DNA of 64,000 nt from Amoebophrya sp. A120 (taxonomy: Eukaryota; Protista; Dinoflagellata): positions 1,740,492 through 1,804,491 of the forward strand of contig CAJINV010000012.1 in NCBI GenBank assembly GCA_905178155.1. Reading direction: 5' to 3'. Below, piece by piece: positions 3,102 through 64,000 of this stretch. Each line of letters begins with the position of its first letter. Positions within the stretch are counted from its first letter, which is position 1. The notes below the pieces were generated by a model that ran no database searches, had not been told where the DNA came from, and was given only the letters and a program-made list of their open reading frames with translations. Both the position numbers and the translations under genes were made by a program.

Positions 3102-3169
3102 GGTATTGGCAGAGGCTAAATCTGTTCTAGCGCCCAGGTATTGGCAGAGGCTAAATCTGTTCTAACGCC
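3102..3169 (+). repeat. ~34-bp tandem duplication near the LINE 3' end
   Basis: ggtattggcagaggctaaatctgttctaRcgcc occurs twice in tandem. Confidence 0.85.
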
Positions 3170-3290
3170 AACCCGCCAGGAGTTAAATGGTTACTACTAC
3201 TACGATGCTGTGCCGCTCCAGCTTATTTTGCGGCACATCATCAAAACCGGTGTTGCAGCTGCGAACCAATTTCGTTCATGACTTCTACAG

Positions 3291-4252
3291 GATCTGTGGA
3301 AGTATGCATTGCAAAAGCATCGTACTAGTATAAATCGCATGACAAATTGACTTAGCATTACAAATGAAATTTGTAATGCGGATTTGCCTCAAGAAAAAGA
3401 TTTGTAATGCATAACTGCAATTAGAAGTACGAGTACGATAGTTTTGCAGTTCATAGGAAGGGTCCGAACGGGGAGTACGTCGCTCTTTCCAAAGTCGAAT
3501 CCGCGTATGAAAGTGCACAACTCCACCCCCTCCCCCTCATTTGTAAAGCAGGAACAGCATTAGAAGCATCAGCAGTAGCGCAGGTTCTGCATGACAAATC
3601 TGTACTTAGAGGATTACTGTGCTGTTCCAGCTGCCAGAACTTGTCATGCATAATAGTGACAGGAGGCAAGGCGTGAATTAGGTATTTTGCATGAGAAATG
3701 AGAACGAGGGGGAGTTGTGCAGTTTCATACCGCGTGCAAGCTCAGCCCCTACATCGACCAGTGCTGCGCGTACGGGAAAACCGGCGCGGCAACCCACATT
3801 CTGCTGGTCGTCGCGAACGATGTGAAGCTGAAGGAGCTGGGGAAGGAGCTGGGGCAGGGCGACGGTGATTTGGCGAAAATCAGAACCAATCCGGCGGTGA
3901 TTAACGCGGTGTATGGTTCTATGAAGGACTACTGCAAACAGTCCAAGATCCTCCCCTTCGAAACCCCGGCGAAGTTGCGGATTGTCGACATCGTCTGGAC
4001 ACCCGAGAACGAAATGCTGACTGCCGCGATGTATCCTGTGCAAAAGCATCGTACGCGTAGTAATCGCAGTCATGCATTACAAATCTCGATCCCAAGGTAA
4101 AACAGCATGACAAACTCCATTTCTCATGCTGAGTGAATTTGTCATGCGATTTCTACTAGTGCGATACCTTTGCAATGCATACGATGAAGATGAAGCGACC
4201 CCAGATCCAGAAACAGCACCAGGACTTGTTGGACGAGATGTATTCGGCGTGA
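3291..4252 (+). CDS. Long-chain acyl-CoA synthetase, C-terminal exons (5' part outside window)
   Basis: Splicing out 3 introners gives DLWK-GPNGEYVALSKVESA-CKLSPYIDQCCAYG...WTPENEMLTAAM-KMKRPQIQKQHQDLLDEMYSA* (420 nt, in frame), a typical ACSL/LACS C-terminus. Confidence 0.9.
3303..3455. mobile_element. Introner family A
   Basis: TIR tatgcattgcaaaag/ttttgcagttcata; DR GGAAG. Confidence 0.9.
3506..3729. mobile_element. Introner family D
   Basis: TIR tatgaaagtgcacaactcc; DR CCGCG. Confidence 0.9.
4032..4181. mobile_element. Introner family A
   Basis: TIR tatcctgtgcaaaag; DR CGATG. Confidence 0.9.
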
Positions 4253-5733
4253 AATCTTGATCTTGTTGAAAAATGATGACTGGTTGGGGGGCGGAGTAGG
4301 AGGTTTTTGGTCGAAATTAGAAGTAGACTAGAATTACTGTGATTCGTTGGCAAGGAGCGGCTGCTCACTTGCTGTACAAGTCGGAGATAAATTGCAGACT
4401 TTTTCAACTACAGAATAAAAATGAAAGGCGAAGTATAAAAATCTGGTGATGGTTGGTCACGGTGTTTGGAGTTTACACTACTTACACGTGGTTTTGGTTT
4501 CGTGATTTCCGAGAAGGCGAGTTGGAGTATAATCGGAATCTGGATCATCTTTCAAGTAGATGAATTGGGACGAGTTTTACTTCTAGAAGAAGAAGACTCC
4601 ACACCACTACAAGGACACACCTGTACATCATGTATCTGGAAATGAACCACCACTCCTGCTAGTAGTAACTAGAGGACCGAATTCGGAACTACCATTGGAG
4701 AATTCGCTTTCGCTACATCTAAATGCATGTTGACATTTCTCACGAATTAAAAAAAAAACCCTCCACAACATGATGAAAAGCAAGAAACTGTGCATATCAT
4801 ACGATAAAAAACTACAGCAACAGAACACCGCTGGTTGCCGTACCAAAAGAGAAAACCGTAATTGCCTTTTTTTCTTGCTCCCCCTTACAATACAAAAGCA
4901 AAGCTGCCCCTCAGCTATGTCAGAAAATCCACAATTCTACTCGTACCAGCGTGCTGCTGTACTAGTGTGCTAAAAAGGAGCTCACACTAGGTGCAAGCAT
5001 AGCATAATCGTGTATAATAATGTAACTCTAGCGCAATTAATATGGCCTAACTAAGGAACGAAAACGAAAGTCATTGTTTCGACATCACACTCTGCACAAG
5101 ATTCAAAAACCCCACACTTGTTTCTACATTTCAGAAAATAAAACATTTGCCGGAACAGATTCTGAGGCAGACAAGAGAACTGCGGACGATAGCATGATTC
5201 TGATTTTGCAAGGCGGTGGTCCTCGATTGTTCTGGTTCTAGCACGCAATCGCGCCTATATCTATTTCTTATTCTTACATCATGATTTTTTTTCCCGACCA
5301 CGGTCACGGATCGCGCCAAAAATCCAATCACAAAAAAGTTCCTTCTGACGAAGATGATTTTTCCATGTGTGTTGTTTGGTGTGACCACATAGAAGAGACA
5401 AGAAACAGACCACGCCGTGATAACCGCTTTTCACAGAAACAACACCACACGGATTATACCACCCCAGGCGATACAAGATCAAAAAGAGCTATGCCTATGT
5501 CAACTTCGAGATTTACAACCTCTTCCACGCAATAATTTTGATTGCGACCACGAGCTGCTAAAAATGTTTGGCATAGTAGTACTATGTATCGGTAATATCA
5601 GCACTGGAAACAAAACACTTTTAGATTTTTCAGTCTAGTCTCCAACCGTTGATATAGAAGTACTACGACACGACCGCACAAGAATTACCCCGTCTTTCCT
5701 TTGTAGAACACCACAAAAATTCCTACCACGACC

Positions 5734-7517
5734 ATGACCTCCGACCCACACGCCGACTTTTTCGGTCAGGACCCGCAGCTCCAGCAGTTAGGCGATGAGT
5801 TCGATAAACCACCGGAAGAGCGGACGAAACAGGTGGTCGCCTGGCCGCCCCCAGGTTACCGAACCGGCGACACCCTCCTCGACGCCCCGGTGCAAGCGAC
5901 CCATTTGGACGCCGCGGGCGCAAAGGCGGTGTGTGCGGATCTCGGGTATTTCCAGGACCCGTGGATTCGACAAATCGTCCCGGCTTACGTCTGCGGGCGG
6001 AAGAGTCCGATCATGCACCGGGGATACTACTTGCGGAACGTCGCGATGCGGCTGAAAGTGGAGCAGTTTATCAAGAACAGCAATCCCTCTATCAAATGTA
6101 AAAATGTCTGGGTCTGGAAGAGTCATGCTGTTTCTGCATGACACAGAAGGTCTGGCATGGAAGCTCTTGCGTCACAGGTTTCGAGAAGCTTCCGCAATGC
6201 CGAATCCGCATGACAAACCCCCCATTTTGGTGACAGAAAGTGAGCAGCTTTTGCTGCCTATGCATCAGAGATTTTTGTGTGTTCTGAAATGCGCATCACA
6301 AGTTGCATTCTTCCAGACCCAGACACTTTTGCACTTGATACCCTCCCTCCCGATTCAAATCGTGGACTTGGGCGCGTTATGCTCTGCAAAATTATCGTAC
6401 TCGTACTAATTGCAATCATGCATGACAAATCTCGTTTCTTACGCAACTCACCATTACAAACTCTATTTTTCCTTCTGGGAAAATTTGTATTGCGATTTAT
6501 AGATACTAGCGCGATGCTTTTGCAATGCATACGCGGGGCTGAACACCATGTATTTCTACACCTCCGCCATGATGGAGCAGTGGGGCCGGAAAAGATCGGA
6601 CTTGTTGTTCTTCGAGGTGGATTTCCCGGTGATTATCGCGAAGAAGACCAAAACGATCCTGCAGAAGAGGAGCCAACTCTTCAAGTTTGACGAACTAATT
6701 TTCGATAAACCGAGTGGAACGGTTCAGATCAACAACGCGACCGAGTGCACGGTGCGGAATACTGTGCACAAAGTAGAACAGTTGAAGCTCCCCTTCTACC
6801 GGCTGTGCGCGACCGACATGCGGCAGTCGGAAGAGTTTAAAACCGTGTTGAACGAGCAGGGGTTTAACGCGATGGCCAACACGTTGTTCTTGTCGGAGTG
6901 TGTGTTGATCTACATGCAGCCGCAATACGGGGACGCCATCATCCAGCAGTGCCGGGAATTGTCTTTAAACCCCACTTATCCAATGCAAAAGTACTTTATC
7001 GTACTAGTATAAATCGCATGACACATTGACTTAGCATTACAGATTGAATTTGTGATGCGGATTTGACTGAAGAAAAAGATTTGCCATGCATAAATGCGAT
7101 AATTAGTACGAGTAAGATACTTTTGCAATGCATACCACCGCTCTAACCATGTTTGCGACGTACGAGCAGTGTAACCCGGACACGAGCTTTGGAAGAATGA
7201 TGGTGAAGAATTTACAGGAACGGGGTTGTCCTTTAATGTCGATCCACGAGTACAAAACGATTGAGGACCAAATCAACCGGTACAAGAAGTTGGGCTTCAG
7301 CGAGTGCAAGGCGATTTCGATCAACGAGCACGTGAAGCAAACCATGAGCGACGCCGAAAAGGTGCGGATAGGGAAGTTGGAATTTCTAGACGAGGTGGAG
7401 GAGCTGAATCTGTTTTTGGATCACTATTTCTTGTTGACGGCTAGCAACAAAGAGTTGGTGGAGTTGGGGAAGGACGGTGCTGGTGTAGTTGGGACGATAA
7501 CGAGTACGACGGGTTGA
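5734..7517 (+). CDS. LCMT1: Leucine carboxyl methyltransferase 1 (PP2A methyltransferase), 4 exons, ~401 aa
   Basis: Motifs LGYFQDPW, RKSPIMHRGYYLR, QIVDLGAG, FFEVDFP, LSECVLIYM, YEQ..D.FG..M, LEFLDEVEE. The frame is restored by removing 3 introners plus one DR each (1206 nt). Confidence 0.93.
6090..6340. mobile_element. Introner family B
   Basis: TIR tatcaaatgtaaaaatgtctgggtctggaag; DR CCCTC. Confidence 0.9.
6378..6531. mobile_element. Introner family A
   Basis: TAT...ATA TIR; DR CGCGT/CGCGG. Confidence 0.88.
6977..7134. mobile_element. Introner family A
   Basis: TAT...ATA TIR; DR CCACT/CCACC. Confidence 0.88.
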
Positions 7518-8503
7518 CGGCGAGGAAAAAGCCATCCCTGATTTGATTTCTGCCCACCTACGACGAAAAAACTTTGTAAGTAAGACCAACGAGAAGAAAC
7601 CTATTCAGCACGACTTTTTGAAAAAAAATCTCTGAGACCACAGACACCGAGGTGCAACTCGCCGCAAACACGAGGACGCATGCGTTCGTAAAGATTTCCA
7701 TCCAAAAAAGTGTTGCACTTTCTTTCCGCAGAGTCGTTTTGCTTCAAAGTTGGTTTCGTGTCGTTGACGTTGGGAGAACCACCGAGGCTTTTGAATTACT
7801 ACCCGAGACGCAGGTGGTTTGTTAGTGGACTTGAGAACACTCGCACACACTTACACGCGTTTGCTCCACTGAGCTCGTTATCAACAGCAGTTCAATGAAT
7901 TCTCTCAATTGCAAGTAAGCGAGCAAGTGGCGCAAGTCTCTTGCTGCGTTACATCCTGTAGGTTCAATTCATCCAAATTCATCACATTCATATAGACCAG
8001 ACCTGGTCAGAGTCAAGTGGCAAAACAGCATGGGAGTCCACTCCTCAACCTGCTCAGATTGGTGCTCGACCCTGGCGGGAGTCAAGTCCCCCAGGGCGAC
8101 CATTCTGAACGCCTGGACCGAGCTGAGTCCATTCATTTCACTACGATCCTGATGGCTTTGCCTTCGTAGTATTTGGGGGATTCGCGGAACATGGTGAAGA
8201 GTTTCCTTTAGGATCTAGATAGATTCTGACCATTTCCCTAAGGATCTAGCTAGTTCAGGCCATTCAGAGCTGTCATTTCATTGAGGAACAGGCGTCATTT
8301 GGGGCGATCGTGTTACGTGTGTGCGGGATCGATTTCCATGACCAACATGGTTAAAAACCGAACTTCTACTAATATCTGTGTGGCCTCGAGCGAAAATTTT
8401 CTCGTTATTGATTCTCAACATTAGACTTTTGATTGCTCAACCGGACAACGTAAATCTGTACTGACAATTTTGGTTTCTTCTTGATTTATGATTTTGGAAT
8501 CTT

Positions 8504-9742
8504 TTGCACGACAACATTGTCGAATTATTGTCATTTCGTTTGCAAAAACTCAAAATGTCTTCAAACATTGTTTCGTCAGCATGTCCATGTTTCTTGCTTG
8601 GTCTGACAACCTTTCAAAAAGTTTGCTCCTATGTTTTGCTTCTCTCGTCTATCAACTATTTCTGCAACTCGCATGATGCCAAAGCCATCTGCGTCCAGGC
8701 ATTGAAACTCTCTTCGTCGCAACCATTCCGTGGTGGATGTTCTGGTGGTGTCACTGCCCCCACTCAGACGCAGACGGTGGTTGTGGGGGAAGAAGATCGT
8801 CGTGGCGACGCTGAGTCGCGTCCTCGTACTGGCAATTCAGCAAGTAGAAGCTCGAGTCGAATTACCTCGGTCTTCCATCCCGCGCCGCCGCGACGCGCTG
8901 GCGCGGTGGTCACCACGACATCAGGTGCTGATACACGAGCAGAGCCGAGATTTTGCAAGAATAAACCTGCTCCACCCAACAAGAGTAGCAGCAGTACCAG
9001 TAGCACTTCCACTTCGACCGCCGGTCAGAGGAATCTTCTAGATAAAGTGCCTACTACTTGTGATGTTACATCAGCAACGCGCGCGGCAACCGCCTCTGGG
9101 CGAACTGGTGCTTGCCCCGACCGCAGTGCCGCTAGTGAATTTTTACCCTGTAGTGGTCGCAGCGCCGAGGCATCTTCCGGTAGCAACAGAGACTCCCCCG
9201 TCCTCGAGAGAAACTCGCAGCGAAGAAAAAAGCATAAGCAGCCACAATCACAAAACCAACATAAGCAGGAAAACGATGACGCTCCTGAGGTTGTTGATTA
9301 TTCCGCACATTTTCGCCACGCCCGCGTCGGACCGATTTTGCCGCCAAGCGACCTTTTCAATTTTCTGACACCGTGGCCGTGGCCGCAGGATTCGCACACT
9401 CGTACCGATGCGAGCGCATCCTCGTCCGATAGTGGACGTGAAGCCGAAAAGCAAAAAAACAAACACGATGCGCGAGGACTGCAGAAGCCACCGCAATGCG
9501 ACATCGACGGGGAGGTTGTCTGCGAAAGATATATTCCCAGCGAACAAGATGAGGAGATGACGTCTTCCTGTACCGCCACTGTTTTCTCGCTATTTTGGGG
9601 CCCCTGCCACCGTAGTGGTCATGGAGGTTCGGGTCTTGATGTTTACAGAAAAAATATGGAATGGAAACAGGTGCTGTTACATCATCTTCGCGATTGGGCG
9701 GCTATTTGTCATGACGGCAAACCAGCAGACTTCTATGTCTAA
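8504..9742 (+). CDS. Hypothetical protein; hydrophobic N-terminus, S/T/R-rich low-complexity body (likely ATG at 8555)
   Basis: 412-aa open frame with no introners and no recognisable domain. It may be truncated by the downstream insertion-rich region. Confidence 0.45.
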   Translation: MHDNIVELLSFRLQKLKMSSNIVSSACPCFLLGLTTFQKVCSYVLLLSSINYFCNSHDAKAICVQALKLSSSQPFRGGCSGGVTAPTQTQTVVVGEEDRRGDAESRPRTGNSASRSSSRITSVFHPAPPRRAGAVVTTTSGADTRAEPRFCKNKPAPPNKSSSSTSSTSTSTAGQRNLLDKVPTTCDVTSATRAATASGRTGACPDRSAASEFLPCSGRSAEASSGSNRDSPVLERNSQRRKKHKQPQSQNQHKQENDDAPEVVDYSAHFRHARVGPILPPSDLFNFLTPWPWPQDSHTRTDASASSSDSGREAEKQKNKHDARGLQKPPQCDIDGEVVCERYIPSEQDEEMTSSCTATVFSLFWGPCHRSGHGGSGLDVYRKNMEWKQVLLHHLRDWAAICHDGKPADFYV

Positions 9743-10647
9743 CAATCACTATCTTACTTTCCCACCAGGACTCCAAAACCGAATCAAGCCCAACACACTT
9801 CTCGAAAATGCATGCGCATTGTGCACCCCATTCCATATTCTTTCCCTACTCGACATCGGAATCCGATCTGCAACGACCACTTTTGCTACATATTGTCGAC
9901 TGAATCACATGAAAAACTTAGCCTGACTTCAGGGGCGACCTGATGAAGAGATGAAGATCAAAATAAAAAAACTCAAACAAATAATTCATGAGCATGCATA
10001 GGTGTGGGAAGGTAGGATGGATTTCTAAAGGTAAATAGATGGATATATTTCCACATACGAACAGGACACCACACACCACGATATCAGAATCTCTCTCATC
10101 CCTTTTCATCACGAACCGAATCCATGATATGGATTGATGGATATATTTTCATTATGGATTCATCGAAAATCAATTTTTTTTTTTGATTTTTCAAAATTAA
10201 TTCGGATCGATATGTGGGATTCTTCATCTATATCTTTTGAGAGAGAATTTGATGATGATGATGAGAATGATGATCGATAATCTCGGGTGGATCGGATCAA
10301 AGATTTGCATCAGAAATATGTCATTAAAGAAAATAAGATGGATTTCTTCAGGGTCTTGATTGAATATATGCCCAGACACGACAAGAAAGATAAAAAGGAA
10401 AAAAAATGATCGATGGAAAATCAATCTTGGAAAATATTTATCATAGGGATTCGGAAATTAATATTTGAGAATCAGAAATTCATTGATTCCATGATAAAGC
10501 AGATTCATTCCAATAAATTCGGAAATTATTTTTGAAATCTCGTATCATCTTTACCATAATTTTTTTCATTTTTCTCGAGATACATATCATGTCTCATCTT
10601 TTCTCAGATAATTTCTCTTCATAATTTTTTTTTATGAATATTTGGAT

Positions 10648-10988
10648 CGTGCGTGCGTGCAAATGTCTTGTGCTGTGTCTTTTCTCTCGTTTTGCGGACG
10701 AAAACCGCGTGCAGCTGCCATAAACGGAATATGGATCACGACAAATGCGCCTCACCATGGGCGTTGGGGGCCGCCCGCAAGGAGTGGGTGTCCTCGGGAA
10801 GCACCTGCGCATACACGCCCAGGAACCCACGACGGTAGGATAGGATACGGCACTGCTGTGTCGTCCTGCACCCCCCCCGCGTATGCAGGTCCCAAGCCCG
10901 GTGATCCTGGGGCGGAAACCGGGGAAATGCCTAAGGGATCTTGGTTTGGCAGCAATCATACTGTAACACCATAGACCTAGAGTAGCAG
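10648..10988 (+). mobile_element. Short retroposed element (SINE or 5'-truncated LINE) with 15-bp target-site duplication
   Basis: GC-rich 341-bp insert in AT-rich DNA, flanked by TATGAATATTTGGAT at 10633-10647 and 10989-11003. Its 3' end resembles the LINE 3' end at ~3095-3200. Confidence 0.7.
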
Positions 10989-19600: not shown

Positions 19601-20860
19601 GGTCGGCGTACTGGCAGGCGTGCCACCAAACAAATCGTACCGAGATTTGTCGTTGACCGCAAGCACCTCGACGTACTTCTCCGTTCCGGAAACGGAAAGC
19701 TGTCGGACGTAGGACTGCACATCGGTGTGGTATTCGGACGTGCGGTCGGTCGGGGAAAGGAAACGGAGGTTGTGCTTCAGAGGAGAATCTTCAGGAATTT
19801 CGATGTTGTAGTTTTTCGTGCTGCCTGCTCCCTTGCCGACATCCAATGCCGCGCTGTTGTTCATCGTGTCCGCATCGTCTGGCAACAAAGTGAAAATGAC
19901 AGTGGAAGAAGACAGCTCCTTCTGCAACTGCCGCTGCGCCCCGCTTTCCTCCAAAATGTTTTCAATTTCGTTTTCCACCACTTTCATCCGCACCAACGCG
20001 TCCAACCCCTTCGGGTTGCAGCTGTGTGCGCCGATCACCAAATGCGCAGATTTTTGCTTCTTCCCGGTTGCAACGAGCTTCTCTTGATCCATCTCCACTC
20101 CCGTTCCCTGGTAGTAGCACAGCTCCTTCACCTATCCAGGAAAAAAACTGTGTAAGTGTAAATTTGTAGGAAAAGCAGCATCACAAACTCGCCTTGCATT
20201 ACAGGGAAAACCTGTCATGCGCAGCTGGTACGTGGAAACACATATTAAAGCTGCCTATGACGCACATCCAGCATGACGCGCGTAAACAATTTTGCATTTT
20301 CTGCATCACAGACTATACACTCACACAGCTTTTTTCTTGCATATCACCATCGGCTGTCTTTCCACCTGTCCGTTCCCGTAGTCCAGGACGTGCTCGGCGT
20401 TGGCAGTCACCAGCTGGCGGTTTTTCTTCAAGTGGACGTCAAATTTTTTGGTTCCAATGGTCATCTCGATGTTCAAATCTTCCGGGTGGGTGGAGATGTG
20501 GGACCGGTTCAGGAGCTGACGCTTCTTCGCAGATGTTGTTGAATGGGATTTAGCCCTGCTTGTTTCCCGTTTCTGCTTGTCTGCTTCCTCATCCACCAGC
20601 TGTCTCTCATGCGCGCCGATCCAACGCAGCTCCACATTTGGCGAGTGCTCCCCGAAGAAGTCTTGCAGCAGCTGGCGACGTGTTTCCGAGGCCTCTTCCG
20701 CTTCGTGTTCGGAGTGGTGGTGACTGTGGTCGTGGTCTCGGTCGTGGGCAGAAGCTTCATGTGCGGACGAGAGGAAAAGGAGAAGTGCCGGGAGATGACG
20801 GAGCTGTTTGGAGGACCGGTGGCAGCAAAGGCCGTGGAGGTAGTGCGGCGTGGCTGCCAT
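13662..20860 (-). CDS. ADAM-like (M12B reprolysin) metalloprotease-disintegrin, 8 exons, ~1317 aa, probably membrane/GPI-anchored
   Basis: Signal-like N-terminus, prodomain, [11 protein letters not shown], zinc motif [12 protein letters not shown] plus Met-turn, disintegrin starts [16 protein letters not shown] and [16 protein letters not shown], furin-like [14 protein letters not shown], hydrophobic C-terminus. Spliced length is 3954 nt, in frame. Confidence 0.9.
14321..14465 (-). other. Canonical GT-AG intron in ADAM gene
   Basis: Minus strand aca t|gtatta...ttcag|cc acc keeps frame. Confidence 0.65.
15044..15345. repeat. Degenerate tandem repeat (aatctgtgttgcgcgc) inside hAT-like element
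   Basis: About a dozen imperfect copies. Confidence 0.8.
15590..16440. repeat. ~60-64-bp GC-rich minisatellite inside hAT-like element
   Basis: Unit ggtgggtaggtcggtaggcgtggccaataggcagcgcacgctcgccccacccacccacca, ~13 copies. Confidence 0.9.
16962..17115. mobile_element. Introner family A
   Basis: DR CAGAG. Confidence 0.9.
17599..17859. mobile_element. Introner family B
   Basis: DR AATCG. Confidence 0.9.
18765..18926. mobile_element. Introner family G (degenerate TIR)
   Basis: TAT...ATA; DR TGCTG. Confidence 0.82.
19060..19213 (-). other. GT-AG intron in ADAM gene, possibly a decayed introner
   Basis: aag|gtatag...cccag|gcc gives [17 protein letters not shown]; contains the ttgtcatgc motif. 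Confidence 0.8.
20133..20343. mobile_element. Introner family C
   Basis: TIR tatccaggaaaaaaactgtg; DR TCACC. Confidence 0.9.
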
Positions 20861-54300: not shown

Positions 54301-57300
54301 TGGAATGCCGGATCTAGAAGCATGACAGGGTCTGCGACGTCTCTATCATGCCTATCCTGCAAGACAGACTGTCTCTAAACTTGTTCAAAAGTGAACAGCT
54401 TTTGGTAGTCATGCAACGCAAATTCTTGTACGATCCAGACTTAGCATGACAAGTTCGCGTCCTCCCAGACTCAGACATAATTGCAATGCATAGTCTTCCG
54501 TAGTCCGTGACCGCGAGGATTCGTAACTGCCGGTAGGACTTACCGCTCGCTTGGTCTACAGAGTTCGCAAAAGAGGAGGAAACGAGGACCGTGTTGTCCG
54601 GAATCTGTAAGGTATATGAAAGCCTCAGGTTGGAAATCCTCAAAGTGGAAATTACTATCTATTATATTCATGCGAAAATATTGGCTAGAGAGGGTAAACG
54701 AGAGGTGGCCGGGAGGTCAAAAAGAGGTCAAAAAGAGGTCGACAGAGGTGGGGAGGTGGCGCGGGAGGTAGTTCGGGAGGGTGGCCGAGAGGTGGCGCGA
54801 GTATAGCCCGCCGAAGGGGTCGCACTTTGGGGCCGCTAAGCGGCACGGAGGTGGCCGAGAGGTAAAAAAGAGGGCGCGCGAGAGGTGGGCAGAGGTGCCG
54901 AGAGGTTGCGCGAATAAGGGCGAACCTCTCGCGCACCCTCTGGGCCACCTCTCGGCCACCTCTGTCGACCTCTACCGGCGAGTATAGCCGGATTATTAGC
55001 AACACCTCTCGGAGAAGGTGAAAAAGAGGGTCTGCGAGAGGGGTGCAAAAACTCGAATCCGCCCGGCACGCGGCCAATTTTGCTTGGGCCTTTTCATCGC
55101 GCAGGCCCGCACCCTTTCGCGCCACCCTCCCGCGCTACCCTCTCGCGCCACCCTTTCGCGCCACCCTCTCGCGCCACCCTCTCGCGCCAGCGATTTCCGC
55201 CGAGAAGCAAATAGGGCGGGGGCGGGTGGGTGATCAAAAAAGGGCATTGCGGCCCCCGTTCTGTTTCCTTCGGCATCTATGTCGGAGCGGCTTCTCTTCG
55301 CCCCCAAGCTTCGCTGCAGCTGCTCCCTGCGCATAGCGCCTGAAGGCGCGGGAAGCGCGCAGGAGGCCCAGCGGGTTGAGATGGCGCAAACCGGCGCCAG
55401 TATTTCCTTCGAACTATCACGCCATGCGCAAAGCTCTGGCGCTGTGGCGCGATCCGCAAATAGTCCTGCCCCGCCACAACAGCCGCTCGCCCCGGCGTCA
55501 GCCGGGGCATGGCTGGTAATTTGTAATGCAAAAAAACGACTCCAGTTGAAGCGCCATTTGTAGTCGGCGCATGACAAATTTCCCGGGCACTCAAAGCGTG
55601 TCTGTCATGCTAGTTAGGCAAAGGGGTGCCCTTCTGTCGTGCTAATCAGCACTCCAATTCTTAACCCGTAGCAGGACAATAGTCGGCTTCCCTTGCATCC
55701 TCTGCAATACAGTCTTTTATGCGTCGCATTTCATGCATCACAAATTATTTCCACGTTGAGGATTTCCATTCTGAGGCTTTCATAAGGTAAACGTTAAGTT
55801 CGTCTGCCCATCACTGTTCATGCTGGTCTATGCAATGCAAAAGCATCGTACTACTATGACTTGCATTACAAATTAGCTCAGCATTACAAATTCAATTTGT
55901 AATGCTAATTTACTTTGAGAAAGAGATTTGTCATGCATAACTGCAATTACTACGAATACGATACTTTTGCACAGGATATGGTCACAGCAGGAGTCAAGCT
56001 GGAAAAAGAACCGACGTACCAGGCGTTCTTCGAGTACGTTGTGTCGGTCTTGTAGTAGCTACTTGCGTCGGTCAAGTTCGCCGGGTAGTCATCTACAAAT
56101 TCTGTCTGCGACACAACATTTGCGCTCGCAGACCCGCCATCCACCGCGATCGCGGTATTGGAAGCTAAGCCTCCAGAAGTCTCCAACTTGTACCGTTTCG
56201 CCGTCGTGTCGTACCAGAGACCGGGGTACTGGTTCGGTAATAAGTAGTTCGGACAAGAAGAACTGCTAGCGCAGCTGGCGTAAGAGAATTTCCCAGTTAC
56301 ACTCGTGTCGTAGTTCGGATCCACGAGATACACAAAATACCCGACCTCCACATTATCCTGCCGGCCCGGCATATCCAAGAAAAAAACTGTGTTAGTGTAA
56401 CTTTCCTTGGCTGACAGCATCACAAATTTGCTCTACATGACAGCGAAAACCTGTCATGCGTGGCTTGTAAGGGAAAACACACTTGAAAAGAGGACTTATG
56501 GTTGTCTGGCATGACAGGTGTAACTCTGTTGCATGTTCTGCATCACAAAGTTACACTTACACAGTTTTTTTCTTCCATACGGCACGGTGAAATTCACCGA
56601 GCCCGCAAACTGCCCCACATCCGGGTCGAAATCACCAGTGACAGCCACATTGCTGCCGGACATGCTTGAGTCTGTGTGGATTATAACGTTGTCTTCGTTT
56701 TTCACCTTTACGTACGCTATTGGCGTCGCTGTTTCCGCGAAGGTGGTTAGAGCGCCGTTGATGGTCGTGGTCATCTTTGTGTACACTGCAAGGTAGTTTT
56801 CCGCGGCGAAACTGTAGCTGTTCAATGGGAGCAAGATCTCCTGCAAAACTGTTGCATCGCTGGTGAAAGTATTGAATGTTGTATCAAATGCAAAAGTGTC
56901 TGGGTCTGGAAGATTCTGAGACTTGTCATGCAGTTTTTCCAAGCTCCGCCAAGTCTCGAATGCAGGGCCTAGCATCACAAGTTCTGCAGACCCTAGGTGA
57001 TGCCTATTCTGCATGAGAAATGCCCCCTCGGCATGGCTAGAAATGGGGACCTTTTGCAAGTCATGCAACGCAGATTTTTCTATGATCCGCAACACGCATC
57101 ACAAGTTCGCATCCTTCCAGACCCAGACATTTTTACATTTGATACGTTGTGATGTCTTGCAACATGGCGTTCTTCGTTGTGCAAGGGGACAGCGGCGATT
57201 GGATACAGTCCGCGGACACTTCGTAAAAAGCGAAGGTCAAGTATGCAGGAAAAAACACGACCCATCCGCATCCAATTTGTCATGCAAAACACCCATGCAC

Positions 57301-60300
57301 TCCAGTGTTTGTGATGCAAAAAAAGGATGGGGATGGGTGTTTTTTCTTGGATATCAAGGAGTCAGAATCCGCGGAATTTTCGGCGATGGTCACTATCAAA
57401 TGTAAAAACGTCTGGGTCTGGAAACTTGTGATGCAAGCCCGTGAACAGTAAGTGTTCTGTAATGCACCGCCAAGCATGACAAGTTTTTTCGTGCTCTTGT
57501 GCTGCGTATTTCGCATGAGAAACTGCGCTTTTGCATGACAGGCAAGAGAGCCTCTTGGTGGCCACGCAATACAGAGTGCGGAGTCATGCCAGACTAGCAT
57601 GACAAATCTTGCAATCTTCCAGACCCGGACATTTTTACAATGCATAGTCACTGGCGTGGTGCAATACAGATTTGCGGTAAACGGGTCGCAACAAAGCGAG
57701 AACCCCTGGCTCCCGGAGTTCAGGTTTGTCGTCTGATGATGTGAAGGTTTTTTTTATACAGGAAATTTTTGATGCCATGATGCACAAACACCAACGAGAT
57801 CATACAGTTCTTACAGACACTACAACTTTCGTCAGTCGCGAAAACGAATACGATACAGTGACACCATAAATATGTAAGTTGTTACGAAAAACATCATGAA
57901 TATCTTCATACCGTCGTCTCATTCATCGGGCAGCTTCTGGGCGCGCTGTGCACGCTGTATCGAATGCAAACATATCTGGGTCTGGAAATAAAGTGGAATT
58001 TGTGTTGCATGTCTAGCATTTCTGAAAAATTAAAATGACCTGTGTTGCGTAGGCAGCAATGGTGTTGCTTTTTTGTCATGCAAAGACGCAGTTTGCCATG
58101 CTTGCTGCGCATCAGACGGCGTTAGGTGAACTTGTCATGCTTCGCTGCACTTGAAAGCACCAGACTCATCCACGCTCTAGCATCACAAGCTTCCAGACCC
58201 AGATCGATATTTGCAACCCATACGCTGACCGGGCCGCCAATCTTGTCTCCATCCACGTCGTAGTCGGTGAAGTTTTTCTATCCTGATAAAAAACGTCCCC
58301 ACCCCGTACTTGTAATGCAAATCTGCATGCTGAAAATGTTTCTCATGTGGAGCCCCATGAGAAAACACCTGCTAGTTGTGTTTGGCTATTTGTCATAGTC
58401 ATACTCCAGTCAGCATGATATGCTGGATCTGTAACACTGCTAAACTAGCTAAACAGGACTACTACACTGCGAGGCCATATGATTTGTTATGCGCACCAGC
58501 CAAAGCTTGTTGATTTGTCTAGCAGATTTCATCCCATCTTGACTACAGGGCGAAGACATTTATTTTACACAGGATATCTTCAGTCCGAGCGACATGAGCC
58601 GATCGGTGGCGAAATAACCGTATGCAAGAAAAAAACTGCGTAAGTGTAAACCTGGATATGCAGAACATGCAACAGATTTACGCCTGTCATGCCAGACAGC
58701 CATGAAGCCCTCTTCTCATGTGTGTTTTTCCTTACAAGCCACGCATGACAGGTTCTGCTCTGTCATGTAGAGCAAATTTGTCATGCTGTCACCCAAAGAT
58801 AGTTACACTAACACAGTTTTTTAATTTGGATAACCCACTCGGCGTAATCACTATCGGTTTCCCGTACACCTTATCCTGTGCAAAAGTATCGTGCTCGTAT
58901 TGCAGTCATGCATTACAAATCTTCTTCTTAAGGCGAATCCCCATGACAAATTTCATTTCTCATGCTAAGGAAATTTGTAATGCATTTATAGGACGAGTAC
59001 GATACTTTTGCAGTTCATACACCTCAATCTCACACAGCGATAACTTCTTCCCGACCGTAGATACCTGAACGGTTATCTTCGTTCCGACCAAATTGCAGTC
59101 GCGACTCACCTGCACGCCGTCAGTATTCGCGTCGTAGGAGCTTGATGAACTTGATGTTCCGCTGCAACTTGTCCCGTCGACAAACAGCTCGAATCCGTTC
59201 AAATCGGTTTTTATCAAATGCAAAAGTGTCTAGGTCTGGAAGAATGCAGGTTTGTCATGCATGTCTGGCATGCCTCGAGCATCTGTGTTGCATAGGCACG
59301 AAAAAGCCCTCGTACCTGTCCTGCAAAAACGCAGTTTGCCATGCGCAATACGTAAGTAAGACATGGGCATGGCAGCCAAAAAAAATATCATGCATAGCTG
59401 CGTATTGCAGTGCGTCTATCATTCACTTTTAGCATTACAAGTTTCCAGACCCAGACGTATTTGATGCAATCCATAGTTTTCAAGCTGTCGTTTCTGTTCG
59501 TCAACCGCACAGCAGAAACGTTGAACGGTAATTGCAATTGCAGATTCAGTTGCTGCGGGCTCGTCGAATCCGCAACGGGGTCAGTTTCGCTGCAATATCC
59601 AGAGAAAAAAGTGTGTAAGTGTAACTTTCTTTGAGGAACAGCATCACAAATTTGCTCTACATGACAGAGAAAACCTGTCATGCGTGGCTTGTAAGGCAAA
59701 ACACACATGAAAACAAGGCTTCATGGCTGTCTGGCATGACAGGTGCAACTCTGTTGCATGTTCTGCAACACAAATTTGCACTTACACAGGTGTTTTCTTG
59801 CATATGCAACTTGGCAAAATCAGTCCAGGGCTGCTGTCGTTGTACGTGGCAAGGTTGTACTCCAAATCGTCTTGAAAGTTCGTGTTTCCATCCACCGCGA
59901 GCTCCGCATCGTTCCGCTGGTCGCCGTTGGCAAAAGTGGACGTCTGGCTGACGATTGCAACGCCACCGGAGGATAAATCCAGCCAGGAGAAACCTGTGTT
60001 CCACTCCGCAGAAAATTTCTCCGGTAGGTACCTGACCGAGCAGATCGCGGGTAGCCTCGTATTGCATATCAATGCGAAAAATCTCCCCTCCCCGTATTGA
60101 AGCGGAGATTTCTGTTGCTGGATTTGTGTACACAGATCAGCTCGGTCTTGCAGTGAGGCACTGCAGCCGAAGCCTAAACCTGCGCGGGGGTGTTTTGCGG
60201 TAGGAGCTTAGCATAGCAGAGGCCTGCCATGTAGGCGCAACAGCATCACAAATCGCCTGCGTAAGTCGGCGGATTATTTGAATTTGCCCTCTTGCAAGAA

Positions 60301-63300
60301 AGACAAGGTTTGTGGTCACAAGTCAACATCACAAATTTTCAAAAACATTCCTTTTCAGTACGAGGACGGGGGATTTTTCCTCATGATATTACACGGTCTA
60401 TCCCGAAAGCCGGTGATGCTGTGCGTCACACAACCGGTATTACTATTCGGCTGGCCGCGGCTATGCGAGTGCACAACTCCCCCTCGTTCTCATTTCTCAT
60501 GCAAAATCCCAAAGCCAAGTGCTTCCCTGTGGCACTGTTTGCATCTCAGATTCCGGAAGTACTAGCGCAAACAATACTACACTAGGCGCAGGAATTTGTC
60601 ATGCACAGGCTCCGCGCGTGCAGGTGCTTGTATGGCTTTTCATGCAATACAAATGAGGGGGAGGGGGAGTTGTGCACTGTCATAGCTGCGCCATTTGGAG
60701 GCGAGGGAAAAGCTGGGTTTCCGCTGCACGTCTTCGAGGAACCGGAAATCGCCCGTGCCGTCGCTATTGGTAGTGGTCAAGCCTATATCAAGTGCAAATA
60801 GAAATATGTCTGGGTCTGGAAGAATGCATGTTTGTCATGCTTGTCTGGCATGACTCTTACATCTGTCATGCACGTTACCCAAGGGCCCCGGTGTTCTGTC
60901 ATGCAGAAACGCAGTTTGTCATGCAGAATAGGCAACACCTAGAAGTAGCTCAAAAAGAACTTGTCATGCTGAGCCAGCACTTGTGGCCTCCTCATGATAC
61001 GCCACCCAGCATCACAAGTTGAAGTTTCCAGACCCAGACATATTTGCAATGCATAGCCTATCCACGCCTGCTGCCCCGAAGACATCAACCCGGCGGACTG
61101 GAGAAAATCGTAGTCCGCCGTTGTATATCCTGTGCAAAAGTATCGCACTCGTAGTAATCGCAGTCATGCATGACGTGGCCTAGGTACGCACATACGACTC
61201 GGTGCGCCAAATCGTATGCGCGTTACAATTTTCGCGCTTTTTTCATTGAGAAAACCCGCCAAAAAGCAGCACCGAGCCCGGTGCGGTTTGTAACGTATGG
61301 CAGCACCGAGCCCGCCAGAGTATGTCTTTTTGCCCACCTACAAAATTGGTATTGTAGCGGCGCGCCTTCACAATACATTTTGGCGCACCGAGGCGGCGCG
61401 CAAAAACGTCCCATTGCGCGCCTTTCCCAGGTGGCGCAGGCGCCTTCGCCTCCTGCGTTTTTTACCTTGCCCTCGAACGCGGGCCAGGGTCCGGGTTTTG
61501 TTTTTCTGGCCACCAAGGCCCGCGCGCGTGGCCTCGCGAATTAGCCTATGGGCCCCCCCGGTCCCCCCCCTCCCCCCCCCCGCGTGCGTTTTTTCGCTTC
61601 GTACACGCCCGCGCCTGCGTCGCCCCCTGCCTTCCGCGGGAGCTTCTGCTCGCGGCGTCGCGCGACGAGCACTACCTCGGACGCACGGCAACAGCACCGA
61701 ATTTGTTTCACGTGTCTCACCGTCTCACCCCAAAAAAAACCAATCTTGGCACCGCCGCGCCCCGAGCGCTTTTTTCCATTTCTGTTGCTGTGTTCCGCCC
61801 GTCTGCTGCTTTATTCCCGCCTACAATTTGGCGTACCGAGGCCGTCCGCCTCGGTGCACCGAGGCGGCCACTCCGAAAAACTGGCATTTTTGGCCTCGGT
61901 GCGCCATTTTGTATGCGCGTCCTGAAGAAACTTCTTCTAGCCTCGGTGCGCCAACTTGTAGTGGCGTACCGAGGCCACGACACTACCGAGGCGACGTCAT
62001 GCATTACAAATTTCTTTCTCAAGGTAAATCCGCATTACAAATTTTATTTCTCATGCTGCGGAAATTTGTTATGCGATTTATACTAGTACGATGCTTTTGC
62101 ATTTCGTATTGTATCCACCGTCGCGAGAACTGATTCGCCGGGAATCAATTTCGCACAGTAATTCACCGCTTCGTCCCGAGAGAAATCAGACGCGGACGAT
62201 GCTATCGAGACCTTCCGAAACGCCATCCCGGTGGCCTCGCTGCAGGAAAAGCCAGCAGGACAGGCGTTGAGTGTGGAGTCTGCGTTAGTTCCTGTAGCTT
62301 ATGCTCTACAAAAGTATCGCACTCGTACTAATTGCAACCATGCATGACAAATCTTGTTTCTTCGCCAAATCAGCATTACAAACTCCATTTTTTTCTGAAA
62401 GAACTTGTATTGCGATTTATACTAGTACGATGCTTTTGCAATGCATATAGCTCCTGTTGTTCCGACCACTATATCGTTGTTCGCATTCGGGTGCTTCTCG
62501 ACAAATTGCCCCTCCTCAAGCTCCAGGCTGTCGAGCGCGAAACTGACGAACGGAAAGATTACGTCGCTTGTCGCGATGTCGAGCGTAATTTGACTAGACC
62601 CAGCGGGGAGAGACACCGCAACTGGTTTCGTGTAGGCCCAGGACCTGGTGTTTTCTCCTTGAGTGGAGGACGTGGTGGAGAAAGTACTTTGGAAGGAAAC
62701 AAACTCCCCATTGCTGGCGTTGTTGGAAGCGGGGAGGATCACGGTCGAGTTTAACTGTTATGAAAGCCTCAGGTTGGAAATTCTCAAAGTTGAAATAATT
62801 TGTAATGCAAAAAAACGATCCCGGTCGACGCCCCCCTTCTAGTCGGCGCATGACAAATCTCCGGGGCACGTGAGGCGTGTCTGTCATGCTGTTTAGTGCA
62901 AAGGGGTGCCCCTTCTGTCATGCTAGTCAGCAACCCAATCCTTAGCACGTAGCAGGACAATAGTCAGCCCCCATTGCGATTGCGTGCTCTGCAATACAGT
63001 CAGTCTATGCGTCGCATTTCATGCATTACAAGTCATTTCAACTTTGAGCATTTCCAACCTGAGGCTTCCTTAACTGTAGGCTTGCGGACAGGGTGGCTTG
63101 CGACAAGTACTGGGCATTCGCCGTGTTTGAGGTGTCAACGGCTAAGGAGTAGCGGAGTCGTATCATATGCAAAGACGTCCCCCCCCATAGTCAAGTTGGG
63201 AACGTAGCAACACAAATCCAGAAGTTTTGGGAGCCACGCATGACAAGTTGCGGTCCGTAGTGTCGTGCATGTTAGCAAGAACAGCCGCATCACAAATCCA

Positions 63301-64000
63301 TCTGCTTATCCTGTTTGCAGCATTACAAGTGCCAAAACACGATTGGAAATGCCTCCCTTGGAGACGCGCATTACAAATGTTCCTGCAATTGCAAATCTGC
63401 ATGACAACTCTGGGGTGGGGACGTTTTTACACAGGATAAACCGAACCAAATAGATTTTCGCGGTGCAGGTGCTCGTCTGAAAGGTCAACGAGAATCCTAT
63501 GGAGAGGAAAAAACCCCCCTCCCCATATCGAAAAGGTATGTTTGCGAAAATTTGTCTTGCTGACTTGAGACCACAAATCACGTCTGTCTTGCAAGAAGAC
63601 AACTCCACAGGCTCTGCCGCATTGTGCAGGCGGTTTGTGATGCTGTTGGGCCTACAGCATAGACGTTTCTCATGCTAAGCGCTAGGCCAAAACTTCTCTA
63701 CTCAGGCTTGGCAGGAGCCTGCAGTCCTCTACTGCAAGACAAACGTGATTTGTATACGCAAATCCAGCATCAGAAACTTCCGTTTGATAATGGGAGGGGG
63801 GATTTTCCCTTGTGATAAATCCGCCAAAGCTGGTTCCCGAGACCTGCACATACCCCGACCCAGAGAACCCGTCTGCGAAATAGCCGCCCGGGGTGGTTGC
63901 AGCCGCGTTTTGCTTGGTCGCTAGAGTCGTGGAGCCGAATATGGCCGGAGTGACCGCACTCGTCTGCTCGGCTTGGTATACCCCGTCGCAGAAGTCTTGC
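24327..64000 (-). CDS. Giant modular extracellular/lectin-like protein, 5' end outside window (~6,970 codons in window, ~66 exons)
   Basis: Removing 63 introners (+5-nt DR each) and 2 GT-AG introns leaves 20,914 nt, in phase with the open frame at 64000. Order N to C: CBM6/35-like (YQAEQ...GFSGSGYV), C-type-lectin-like (AVNYC...AWIG), FTP/fucolectin-like (AELAVDGN...VRLTNR...LSLCEIEVYG), ~17 F.D.D.D..EI.G repeats, second CBM-like, YHYH domain, FN3-like C-terminus ending VFRAV*. Confidence 0.8.
24495..24631 (-). other. Canonical GT-AG intron (no TIR)
   Basis: gcg|gtagag...actcag|ccc keeps frame. Confidence 0.75.
24883..25154. mobile_element. Introner family B
   Basis: DR GGTTT. Confidence 0.9.
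27387..27651. mobile_element. Introner family B
   Basis: DR GTTGT. Confidence 0.9.
28240..28400. mobile_element. Introner family A
   Basis: DR AGTAA. Confidence 0.88.
28445..28658. mobile_element. Introner family C
   Basis: DR AGACC; interrupts YHYH motif LDGFPV|Y. Confidence 0.9.
28955..29237. mobile_element. Introner family E
   Basis: TIR ...aaaaacgYccccacYccagag; DR TACCT/TCCCT. Confidence 0.87.
30929..31164. mobile_element. Introner family B
   Basis: DR TCGTC. Confidence 0.9.
31350..31526. mobile_element. Introner family G
   Basis: DR TGTGG/TGTGC. Confidence 0.82.
31654..31915. mobile_element. Introner family B
   Basis: DR GTCGT. Confidence 0.9.
33531..33755. mobile_element. Introner family D
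   Basis: DR CTCCA. Confidence 0.9.
33796..33944. mobile_element. Introner family A
   Basis: DR AGGCG/AAGCG. Confidence 0.88.
34658..34810. mobile_element. Introner family A
   Basis: DR TTGTT. Confidence 0.9.
35349..35620. mobile_element. Introner family B
   Basis: DR TGAGT/TGAAT. Confidence 0.88.
35738..36055. mobile_element. Introner family F
   Basis: TIR tatcaaaaggaaaatccgccctcccc; DR GCCTA/ACCTA. Confidence 0.87.
36124..36268. mobile_element. Introner family A (left TAT mutated to AAT)
   Basis: DR AGAAA/AGAGG; frame restored. Confidence 0.83.
36896..37044. mobile_element. Introner family A
   Basis: DR GCTTT/GTTTT. Confidence 0.88.
38106..38366. mobile_element. Introner family B
   Basis: DR GATCG/GATCA. 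Confidence 0.88.
38532..38793. mobile_element. Introner family B
   Basis: DR ACAGA. Confidence 0.9.
38857..39011. mobile_element. Introner family A
   Basis: DR CGCCG/GGCCG. Confidence 0.88.
39343..39513. mobile_element. Introner family G
   Basis: DR GAGTT/AGGTT; degenerate TIR. Confidence 0.78.
39682..39969. mobile_element. Introner family E
   Basis: DR TCAAA. Confidence 0.88.
40025..40265. mobile_element. Introner family C (with internal ~30-bp duplication)
   Basis: DR GTGTT. Confidence 0.9.
40567..40777. mobile_element. Introner family C
   Basis: DR CGTTG; close relative of the 40025 copy. Confidence 0.9.
40841..41096. mobile_element. Introner family H
   Basis: Long TIR tatgacacgctcag..gttacaatctca; DR GAACT/AATCT. 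Confidence 0.85.
41220..41428. mobile_element. Introner family C
   Basis: DR AGTGC. Confidence 0.9.
42025..42259. mobile_element. Introner family H-related
   Basis: TIR tatggcgttctcaa..gttacattctcaac; DR CTGCG/CAGCG. Confidence 0.87.
42725..43948. repeat. GC-rich modular minisatellite with GCCACGTGGC palindromes
   Basis: Units of ~20/30 bp built from gcgtggcgc, cacgtggcgt, cacgggga, tcct. Confidence 0.93.
43953..44600. repeat. 24-bp tandem repeat with a perfect 16-bp palindrome GACCTGAATTCAGGTC (~27 copies)
   Basis: Unit gacctgaattcaggtc plus YccgRctR. Confidence 0.95.
45681..45943. mobile_element. Introner family B
   Basis: DR TGAAG. Confidence 0.9.
45990..46241. mobile_element. Introner family B
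   Basis: DR GGGCC/GGTCC. Confidence 0.88.
46374..46622. mobile_element. Introner family B
   Basis: DR GAGGT/GGGGT. Confidence 0.87.
46714..46863. mobile_element. Introner family A
   Basis: DR TACAA. Confidence 0.9.
47409..47673. mobile_element. Introner family B
   Basis: DR AGGAG/AGCAG. Confidence 0.88.
47743..48002. mobile_element. Introner family H
   Basis: DR CTGGG/CTGGA; inverted relative of the 40841 copy. Confidence 0.88.
48049..48303. mobile_element. Introner family B
   Basis: DR AATTC. Confidence 0.9.
48403..48655. mobile_element. Introner family B
   Basis: DR TCAAC. Confidence 0.9.
49610..49891. mobile_element. Introner family E
   Basis: Near-perfect TIR tatcctgagtaaaaacgtacccac; DR GCTGT. 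Confidence 0.92.
49929..50137. mobile_element. Introner family C
   Basis: DR CGTAA. Confidence 0.9.
50541..50755. mobile_element. Introner family B
   Basis: DR ACGAT/GCGGT. Confidence 0.85.
51212..51420. mobile_element. Introner family C
   Basis: DR AACCA. Confidence 0.9.
51559..51708. mobile_element. Introner family A
   Basis: DR GGTGG. Confidence 0.9.
52473..52623. mobile_element. Introner family A
   Basis: DR AGATG. Confidence 0.9.
52684..52991. mobile_element. Introner family I-related
   Basis: TIR tataggagtgtcaggattgaaatcg; DR GCCGT/GTCGT. Confidence 0.87.
53170..53497. mobile_element. Introner family F (left terminus CAT)
   Basis: DR GACGG. Confidence 0.87.
54225..54492. mobile_element. 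Introner family B
   Basis: DR GTCTC/GTCTT. Confidence 0.88.
54615..55784. mobile_element. Introner family I hosting a nested Helitron-like element
   Basis: TIR tatgaaagcctcag..tggaaatcctcaa; DR AGGTA; an uninterrupted sister copy lies at 62759. Confidence 0.9.
54652..55516 (+). mobile_element. Non-autonomous Helitron-like element
   Basis: Inserted between A and T with no TSD (empty site seen in 62759 copy). 3' hairpin GCCCCGGC-gtca-GCCGGGGC (55489-55508) followed by CTGG; 5' end TTACTATCTATT. Confidence 0.72.
55829..55978. mobile_element. Introner family A
   Basis: DR TGGTC. Confidence 0.9.
56372..56579. mobile_element. Introner family C
   Basis: DR CGGCA. Confidence 0.9.
56882..57144. 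mobile_element. Introner family B
   Basis: DR TGTTG/CGTTG. Confidence 0.88.
57242..57353. mobile_element. Short introner (112 bp, C-like termini)
   Basis: DR TCAAG. Confidence 0.87.
57394..57646. mobile_element. Introner family B
   Basis: DR GTCAC. Confidence 0.9.
57733..57911 (-). other. GT-AG intron, possibly a decayed introner
   Basis: acg|gtatga...catcag|acg keeps frame; residual DR GACGG/GACGA. Confidence 0.72.
57958..58222. mobile_element. Introner family B
   Basis: DR CGCTG. Confidence 0.9.
58279..58576. mobile_element. Introner family E
   Basis: DR TTTTC/TCTTC. Confidence 0.86.
58621..58832. mobile_element. Introner family C
   Basis: DR AACCG/ACCCA. Confidence 0.85.
58872..59019. 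mobile_element. Introner family A
   Basis: DR CACCT; interrupts CEIEV|YG. Confidence 0.9.
59212..59475. mobile_element. Introner family B
   Basis: DR GTTTT. Confidence 0.9.
59596..59804. mobile_element. Introner family C
   Basis: DR TGCAA. Confidence 0.9.
60067..60388. mobile_element. Introner family F
   Basis: DR TTGCA/TTACA. Confidence 0.87.
60462..60684. mobile_element. Introner family D
   Basis: DR GCGGC/GCTGC. Confidence 0.88.
60786..61055. mobile_element. Introner family B
   Basis: DR GCCTA. Confidence 0.9.
61126..62108. mobile_element. Introner family A hosting a nested TIR element
   Basis: DR TTGTA; the family A sequence resumes after the insert. Confidence 0.88.
61171..61999. 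mobile_element. Non-autonomous TIR element with 4-bp TSD TGCA
   Basis: TIR tgacgtggcctaggta / taccgaggcgacgtca; internal caccgagg/cctcggtg subterminal motifs. Confidence 0.78.
62300..62447. mobile_element. Introner family A
   Basis: DR TAGCT. Confidence 0.9.
62759..63072. mobile_element. Introner family I
   Basis: DR ACTGT. Confidence 0.9.
63161..63438. mobile_element. Introner family E
   Basis: DR AGTCG/AACCG. Confidence 0.85.
63498..63817. mobile_element. Introner family F
   Basis: DR AATCC. Confidence 0.9.

Follow-up and report, generated by a model that had tools for sequence, protein, structure and literature searches.

Genes in the 64,000-nucleotide stretch of the Amoebophrya sp. 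A120 contig CAJINV010000012.1 analyzed here (the window) are interrupted by short repeats, the introners. A sequence-only reading of this eukaryotic DNA had described the introner families as unrelated, except for one short motif that was proposed to be the binding site of a single trans-acting factor, and the question is what such a motif does in so many different elements. Our analysis suggests that it is probably recognized in double-stranded DNA by one protein common to all families, most likely their transposase. The element class is already known. What is new is a weak mirror half of the site located 8 bp upstream, a same-orientation spacing of 31–33 bp, and a helical phasing of the site dyads at 10.4 bp.

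Elements were called without the motif, from TAT..ATA ends, an inverted-repeat score and a flanking repeat. Of the 78 automatic calls, 12 were discarded by eye as chance matches, leaving 66 motif-blind elements, and eight more, not motif-blind, were added by hand after inspection of regions that included uncovered motif matches. The resulting 74 introners, in about 11 groups, occupy 16.6 kb, with a further 3.6 kb in nested foreign inserts and 43.8 kb in the remainder of the window. The TAT terminus and 5-bp direct repeat, which had been called universal, are common rather than invariant: the ends are exact in 69 of the 74 elements, and the direct repeat is perfect in 45 and has one mismatch in 21. 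In the family-weighted terminal profile, T, A and T reach 0.99–1.0, followed by G or C at position 4 and by A at 0.65–0.89 at positions 11–14, and this pattern, TAT-S-N6-A-rich, is common to all families. The covariation excess between left and right terminal repeats is small. The elements resemble miniature inverted-repeat transposable elements in being short, in having terminal inverted repeats and target duplications, in lacking coding capacity and in their many copies; the summed contig depth is up to 1e5 over element bins versus about 30 in element-free bins.

The shared motif is confirmed. Its strict form, GCATNACAAA, has 105 matches in the window, compared to a chance mean of 0.69 (none of 100 shuffles gave more than 4), and 104 of these are inside elements, none in the nested inserts and one, at 49499, in the DNA outside. 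A k-mer count ranked GCATGACA at the top, with 111 occurrences inside versus one outside elements and representation in 14 of 14 groups. The motif as first written is thus present, but the true motif is wider and more degenerate: the refined matrix reads G-C-A-T/A-N-A-C/G-A-R-R-T, written more fully as GCAWNA(C/G)ARR, with T or A at position 4, G, T or C at position 5, C or G at position 7 and purines at positions 9–10. At a score of 12, this matrix has 300 matches in element DNA, 5 in nested inserts and 6 outside, or 18.1 per kb inside versus 0.23 per kb elsewhere. Nearly all elements contain 2–7 copies; the element at 46714-46863, for example, has sites at 46748-46757 (+), 46781-46790 (-) and 46812-46821 (-), the two minus sites being separated by 31 bp. 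Several copies in both orientations had been claimed for nearly all elements, and this applies only in part, since the 9-mers as first written are represented at least once in 73 of 74 elements but at least twice in only 48 and in both orientations in only 35, and all sites of families D and K are placed on a single strand.

A metagenome scan seeded with the family B pattern identified at least 158 loci, at least 149 of which were from the assembly JACKZZ01. Counts of family B are biased by the seed, and, where stated, key tests were run again with this family left out. The nine loci outside JACKZZ01 had no motif and were discarded as chance matches. JACKZZ01 contains the same families, with up to 95% identity, at different loci. 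Among the at least 311 elements called there without using the motif, 309 of 311 carry a site according to the window-trained matrix, the site density is 15.7 per kb inside versus 0.49 per kb outside, and 10 of the 11 clusters without a window member carry sites. The direct repeat is exactly 5 bp long, the matches at the sixth base (77 and 65 of 311) being at chance level, and the insertion target shows no base preference. In copies placed by homology, the direct repeat is perfect in 288 and has one mismatch in 77 of 395. With the sites and the outer 14 bp masked, cross-family alignments score near shuffles and within-family alignments score 42–126; the exceptions are the pairs D-E, E-G and D-G, at 21–23 versus 17–18. 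The families are therefore mostly near-unalignable, but their shared ends, the merging of family I with family A in the larger clustering and the weak similarity of D, E and G qualify the statement that they are unrelated.

These same qualifications, namely the shared terminal pattern, the link between A and I and the weak masked similarities, are what favors a motif that is merely a functionless relic of one ancestral repeat behind all families. The sequence-only reading had staked its proposal on the motif being rare in exons and intergenic DNA and on its being conserved above the rest of the element among sister copies, and both turned out to be the case, in the latter comparison in 8 of 8 families. 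When the site was called in one copy and identity was scored in the remaining copies, core identity was 0.78–0.93 versus 0.55–0.71 for the interior, and in the larger families position 5 of the site was conserved only at the level of the interior. A core that is conserved well over its neighboring bases, with a free position inside, already largely refutes a relic. Furthermore, the number, order and orientation of the sites vary between families while their phase is kept, and after masking the majority of comparisons between families score no more than about one standard deviation from the shuffles, so that we regard a relic as extremely improbable.

The geometry of the sites points to a protein on DNA. 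Upstream of each site there is a weak patch with T at -10, G at -9 and C or G at -8, the last of these in 38 of 42 family sites and in the majority of sites in each of eight families. The reverse-strand site score is -3.2 at exactly 8 bp upstream versus -7.4 to -11.3 at 19 other offsets. The site is an imperfect palindrome, in which a strong half, GCAWNACARR, and a weak mirror half, T-G-S, are separated by a 7-bp spacer. The commonest same-orientation spacing between sites is 31–33 bp, present in nine of ten window families. Pairs at this spacing occur in 6.4 of 10 window families per draw versus 0.98 when randomized (P 0.0003), an interval picked after viewing the window data, in 4.6 of 8 families among the second-assembly copies versus 0.72, and in 3.0 of 11 clusters absent from the window versus 0.59 (P 0.01). 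Dyad-centre spacings in any orientation over 20 clusters give an in-phase cosine of 0.39 at 10.4 bp; with site number and order kept and positions uniform, the null median is 0.08 and 0 of 400 draws reach 0.39, although shared family ancestry would lower the effective number of votes. Element length shows no periodicity (P 0.90, 23 lengths). A site is located 34–64 bp in at 661 of 746 ends and none lies at 21–33 bp, and outward-pointing first sites cluster 40–42, 48–52 and 60–63 bp from the tip. In family A, the sites are located 35 and 53 bp from one end and 43 and 74 bp from the other, all pointing inward, whereas family B has an outward-pointing first site 41 or 48–50 bp from the end, and family D has three 31–33-bp doublets on one strand only.

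The helical phasing and the mirror half-site support the part of the earlier proposal that one shared trans-acting factor is involved, with the sites as its presumed points of binding. They would, however, suit any dimeric protein on one face of the DNA, including a host DNA-binding or chromatin protein recruited as a bending or wrapping helper for a transposase that reads the tips only, and no transposase was reported in A120 in the cited part of that study (PMC7789003). Host exons and intergenic DNA contain almost no such sites, as seen from the six matches outside elements, so that no host function elsewhere is apparent in the window, and we consider a host helper unlikely.

A motif that acts in RNA, as hairpin arms, as a branch point (it contains U-N-A-C) or as the site of an RNA-binding protein, is suggested by the predicted pairing of opposite copies in families A, E and F (0.46–0.63) and by the lean of family D to the sense orientation. 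However, opposite copies do not covary: their variable dinucleotides match in 224 of 756 pairs versus 223.3 expected, and in 43 of 124 versus 43.3 in family A alone. Hairpin pairing of the copies was rejected on these grounds, with low power where subgroups vary little, and the family D copies cannot pair (predicted pairing 0.03). A branch point, raised by a 12:1 skew in family D, was dropped on site position and conservation. While a spliceosomal branch point is sense-only, lies in a fixed zone near the 3' end and has an invariant branch A, the last sense site is 40–138 nt from the 3' end, varying by family and orientation; 19 copies have no sense site, including six of family D and three of family K (for three of those six D copies, the strand call is supported by the codon usage of both flanking regions); and the would-be branch A changes in 4.1%, being less conserved than C2 or A8. 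Helical phasing is also without a clear meaning in RNA. Among copies shorter than 345 bp in the 266 of 442 with a called host strand, there are 550 sense versus 576 antisense sites and no overall preference. The one-strand families are present in genes both ways round (D 15:6, K 2:3), so the two-orientation arrangement that had been thought to let the motif work on either strand is not needed for that. Because covariation is absent, one-strand families occur both ways round and the branch point fails, the pattern fits a double-stranded DNA signal, and we consider a role in RNA very unlikely.

A site read in DNA could serve movement or removal, and its decay bears on the choice. Private changes affect 6.6% of the interior, 1.3% of TAT, 0.8% of C2 and 2.2–3.2% of G1, A3 and A8. 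Mismatches in the direct repeat, which date the insertion, amount to 5.6% overall, with 3.5% (10/284) at second and 11.2% at third codon positions. In copies with imperfect repeats, private changes at G1, C2, A3 and A8 rise from 1.8% to 3.7% (confidence interval, CI, of the difference 0.8–2.9 points), TAT damage is unchanged at 1.3%, with a wide interval, and the interior gains 0.8 points (CI -0.1 to 1.8). Because core damage doubles with imperfect repeats and TAT is flat, we read this as sites that decay after insertion while the tips are maintained, although C2, with its low absolute rate, argues in the opposite direction.

Removal from RNA was followed in the host genes. When each element plus 5 nt is removed, open frames of 4154, 2239, 1111, 589 and 410 codons result, which are not opened by removing the element plus 0, 3, 4 or 6 nt. 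The frames are unable to separate removal of +5 from +2, but contig skips do: exact skips of the element plus 5 nt, with sizes of 229, 155, 256, 159 and 163 nt, are found at the elements starting at 3506, 4032, 6090, 6378 and 6977. These contigs are from runs X8 and X9 of one sample, presumed to be RNA, with zero depth between genes, and the skips cover five of the six elements of the covered stretch, with none for the element at 3303. The two repeats of the elements at 6378 and 6977 are not identical in the base that precedes TAT, and since this base is lost, the cut must fall one base or more upstream of TAT. Elements are removed in either orientation, both being represented among the skipped family A copies, and the repeats show no GT/AG enrichment. 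The raw RNA runs X5-X7 give almost no coverage of 45–64 kb or 3–7.8 kb, just element ends from other loci, and for this reason removal in the long gene described below rests on open frames. The DNA contigs of run X1 run through the element junctions with no exact skip among the joints shown (1197 further joints are unshown), and excision at the DNA level is not indicated.

Removal in both orientations without GT/AG enrichment, in an organism in which U1 small nuclear RNA was not found according to the cited part of the A120 genome study (PMC7789003), raises the idea that a DNA-bound factor, either a domesticated transposase or a host protein, also marks the element for cotranscriptional removal and so replaces the missing U1. 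The low rate of change at C2 (9 of 1116 sites, a lower rate than in the direct repeats), the 4.3% change at interior C in a GCA context outside sites, and a decayed intron near 14340-14465 that keeps two sites all speak for such a mark. However, the core decays with age and TAT does not. Two second-assembly copies without a scored site lie in open frames, as do three window copies with nested inserts of 0.8–1.9 kb, in which sites are displaced or a terminal repeat is split; judged from the frames, such copies would be removed too. We therefore think a marking factor unlikely. Since sites seem to decay while tips are kept, and frames are open in site-less or displaced copies, the site on balance serves movement. 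The earlier suggestion of a transposase and/or excision factor is thus favored in its first half and unsupported in its second.

If the protein is a transposase, each end would be occupied along one face of the DNA by several dimers, the first of them 34–64 bp from the tip, so that the TAT tips are delivered to the active site, where cutting with a 5-bp stagger would produce the direct repeat. Mobilization would then depend on nothing but the tips and the phased sites, leaving the intervening DNA to drift freely, and this could explain how many unalignable families are moved by one enzyme. Removal from RNA would rest on the tips and a terminal hairpin rather than on the motif.

Several observations weigh against a shared transposase. 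The same-orientation periodicity is weak on its own in the new clusters (P 0.18), the base at -8 is weaker there (20 of 34), one set of sequences served to measure both the dyad offset and the phasing, and the families may have a remote common ancestry and thus not be fully independent votes. The private change rates at C2 and at G1, A3 and A8 are below the direct-repeat mismatch rate, which leaves scope for selection on inserted copies. One orientation is favored in family D, with 12 of 13 under strict and 15 of 21 (P 0.08) under looser strand calls, and there may be a mild strand effect in this family. A binding protein was not found, and there was no transposase domain in 37 long frames (35 of 116 from second-assembly loci and two from the window), the space searched being about 0.5 Mb of the second assembly and the window. 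No autonomous element was found among the at least 311 elements, of which the longest complete one is 1104 bp, and two scans of viral contigs for the protein or an autonomous element gave no match. In its cited part, the A120 genome study also concluded against a general mobilization by transposases (PMC7789003).

Multiple short conserved sites inward of the tips and in both orientations are typical of the subterminal repeats of hAT transposons, and by analogy suggest that a transposase may bind here, although hAT elements duplicate 8 bp of target and the introners 5 bp. In the portion of the Hermes study cited here (PMC10368747), the BED-domain sites are likewise many, short, two-oriented and inward of the tips, the two ends are arranged differently and there is a quasi-palindromic pair; the Hermes sites are 4 bp long and their binding by the protein is shown, whereas here a 10-bp half with a weak mirror half is phased at 10.4 bp in elements that are introns. 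The TA..TA ends and 5-bp duplication suggest an integrase-like enzyme of the Ginger, IS3EU or GingerRoot type. According to the cited parts of PMC10045372 and PMC6839031, IS3EU and GingerRoot share TA..TA ends and the absence of a base-specific target with the introners but usually duplicate 6 bp, where identity here stops at 5, and Ginger2 has comparable 4–5-bp duplications but TG..CA instead of TAT..ATA ends. The word "subterminal" is absent from the GingerRoot paper as far as its cited text goes. One A120 family of 808 bp is listed as "Ginger, 5-bp TSD (target site duplication), TA/TA termini" in supplement 8 of PMC12130899, where homology to retrotransposon frames is also given for it. The nonconventional introns of euglenids, as described in the cited part of PMC11282704, are similarly transposon-like: their termini pair, their junctions carry repeats and their ends are not GT-AG, but no shared phased internal site is described there.

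The window elements match the published A120 introners in their repeats of TAT, seven variable bases and AAA, in their 5-bp direct repeats and in their non-canonical removal. The cited portions of both papers on these introners (Farhat et al. 2021, PMC7789003; Gozashti et al. 2025, PMC12130899) describe inverted repeats of TAT, seven variable bases and As, and the former reports direct repeats of 3–5 nt, compared to 5 bp here, and non-canonical removal. The lengths of the window families match the table in the latter, near 107, 149, 209, 252–261, 278 and 305–321 bp. About 2000 A120 families without a shared origin are reported in the former. In these portions the termini are described and the family origins are given as unknown or mixed, with no internal motif, mirror half-site or phasing. 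No published report of any of these three was found, although figures or further literature may hold one.

The family letters are our own and may differ from those of the sequence-only reading. Family A (about 150 bp, 18 copies spanning 3303..62447, no strand assigned) is located at 3303-3455, 4032-4181, 6378-6531, 6977-7134, 16962-17115, 28240-28400, 33796-33944, 34658-34810, 36124-36268, 36896-37044, 38857-39011, 46714-46863, 51559-51708, 52473-52623, 55829-55978, 58872-59019, 61126-62108 (with a nested insert) and 62300-62447. Family B (about 252-265 bp, 22 copies spanning 6090..61055, no strand assigned) is located at 6090-6340, 17599-17859, 24883-25154, 27387-27651, 30929-31164, 31654-31915, 35349-35620, 38106-38366, 38532-38793, 45681-45943, 45990-46241, 46374-46622, 47409-47673, 48049-48303, 48403-48655, 50541-50755, 54225-54492, 56882-57144, 57394-57646, 57958-58222, 59212-59475 and 60786-61055. 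The ten copies of family C (about 209 bp, spanning 20133..59804, no strand assigned) are at 20133-20343, 28445-28658, 40025-40265, 40567-40777, 41220-41428, 49929-50137, 51212-51420, 56372-56579, 58621-58832 and 59596-59804. Family D (about 280 bp, five copies spanning 28955..63438) is found at 28955-29237, 39682-39969, 49610-49891, 58279-58576 and 63161-63438, the last being reversed relative to its host gene. The smaller families are E (about 224 bp, span 3506..60684) at 3506-3729, 33531-33755 and 60462-60684; F (about 310 bp, span 52684..63072) at 52684-52991, 54615-55784 (with a nested insert) and 62759-63072; G (about 320 bp, span 35738..63817) at 35738-36055, 53170-53497, 60067-60388 and 63498-63817; H (235-260 bp, span 40841..48002) at 40841-41096, 42025-42259 and 47743-48002; I (162-177 bp, span 18765..39513) at 18765-18926, 31350-31526 and 39343-39513; and K at 57242..57353, 112 bp long with a single 32-bp doublet on one strand. 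Within elements, positions 4–8 are the most variable part, with 10% private changes compared to 6.6% for the interior, and the same few variants recur there across different families.

An A-like element at 14562..16694 (no strand assigned) has its right inverted repeat split by a 1.9-kb foreign insert at 14739-16672, which has long inverted ends and contains tandem arrays, one of them with six GCAACACA-type matches at 15052-15280. The insert of about 850 bp at 54661-55513 in a family F copy contains a 238-residue frame without a Pfam match. A similar long F copy is found at another locus in the second assembly (L027:505-1608), with 83–86% identity over two stretches, and from this likeness the long form of family F may itself have moved. 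In a family A copy, the first site is separated from the terminal repeat by a foreign insert of about 820 bp at 61175-61996, which is surrounded by a short duplication. A decayed element with one site at 19061..19212 (-) is now readable, over 19060-19213, as a GT..AG intron, its GT consisting of the final base of the repeat followed by the first T. Two AT-rich interruptions, at 14340-14465 and 57755-57905, lack clear terminal repeats; the former retains two motif copies 39 bp apart and may be an old introner.

Among the host genes, a member of the leucine carboxyl methyltransferase family at 5707..7514 (+) has 410 open codons when its three elements plus 5 nt each are removed, and all three skips are present in the probable-RNA contigs. 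A gene with reprolysin and disintegrin domains at 14458..20893 (-) has 1111 open codons without its elements. The long coding region at 24611..63999 (-) has open runs of 4154 (42767-24611), 2239 (57753-44699) and 589 (63999-57909) codons and no Pfam match in the five exon pieces tested. Its two longest runs are separated from each other by two GC-rich tandem arrays at 42700-44640, in which no TAT..ATA ends and no motif were found. A coding piece at 3140-4250 (+) has one stop left just before the element at 3303 and no Pfam match; we take it to be similar to the C-terminal part of an acyl-CoA synthetase. The 677-residue lysine- and glutamate-rich open frame at 204-2237 (+) has no Pfam match and no introner. 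Insertions are skewed in phase: of 188 copies, 92 have a direct repeat that begins at the third codon position, compared to 51 and 45 for the other two positions.

How the tens of thousands of introners in A120 have moved is an open question, and the phased site, which nearly all families examined have in common, points to one likely shared protein. The site provides a defined probe for pulling down this protein and a signature for finding an autonomous parent element. Two signals can, moreover, now be distinguished and mutated independently: the TAT tips, apparently kept after insertion, and the internal sites, which apparently decay. Should one protein on the phased DNA array both move the elements and tag them for exact removal from the transcript, which we think improbable, this would be a transposon-derived definition of introns at the DNA level, effective whatever the orientation or insertion site of the element, in an organism without U1.

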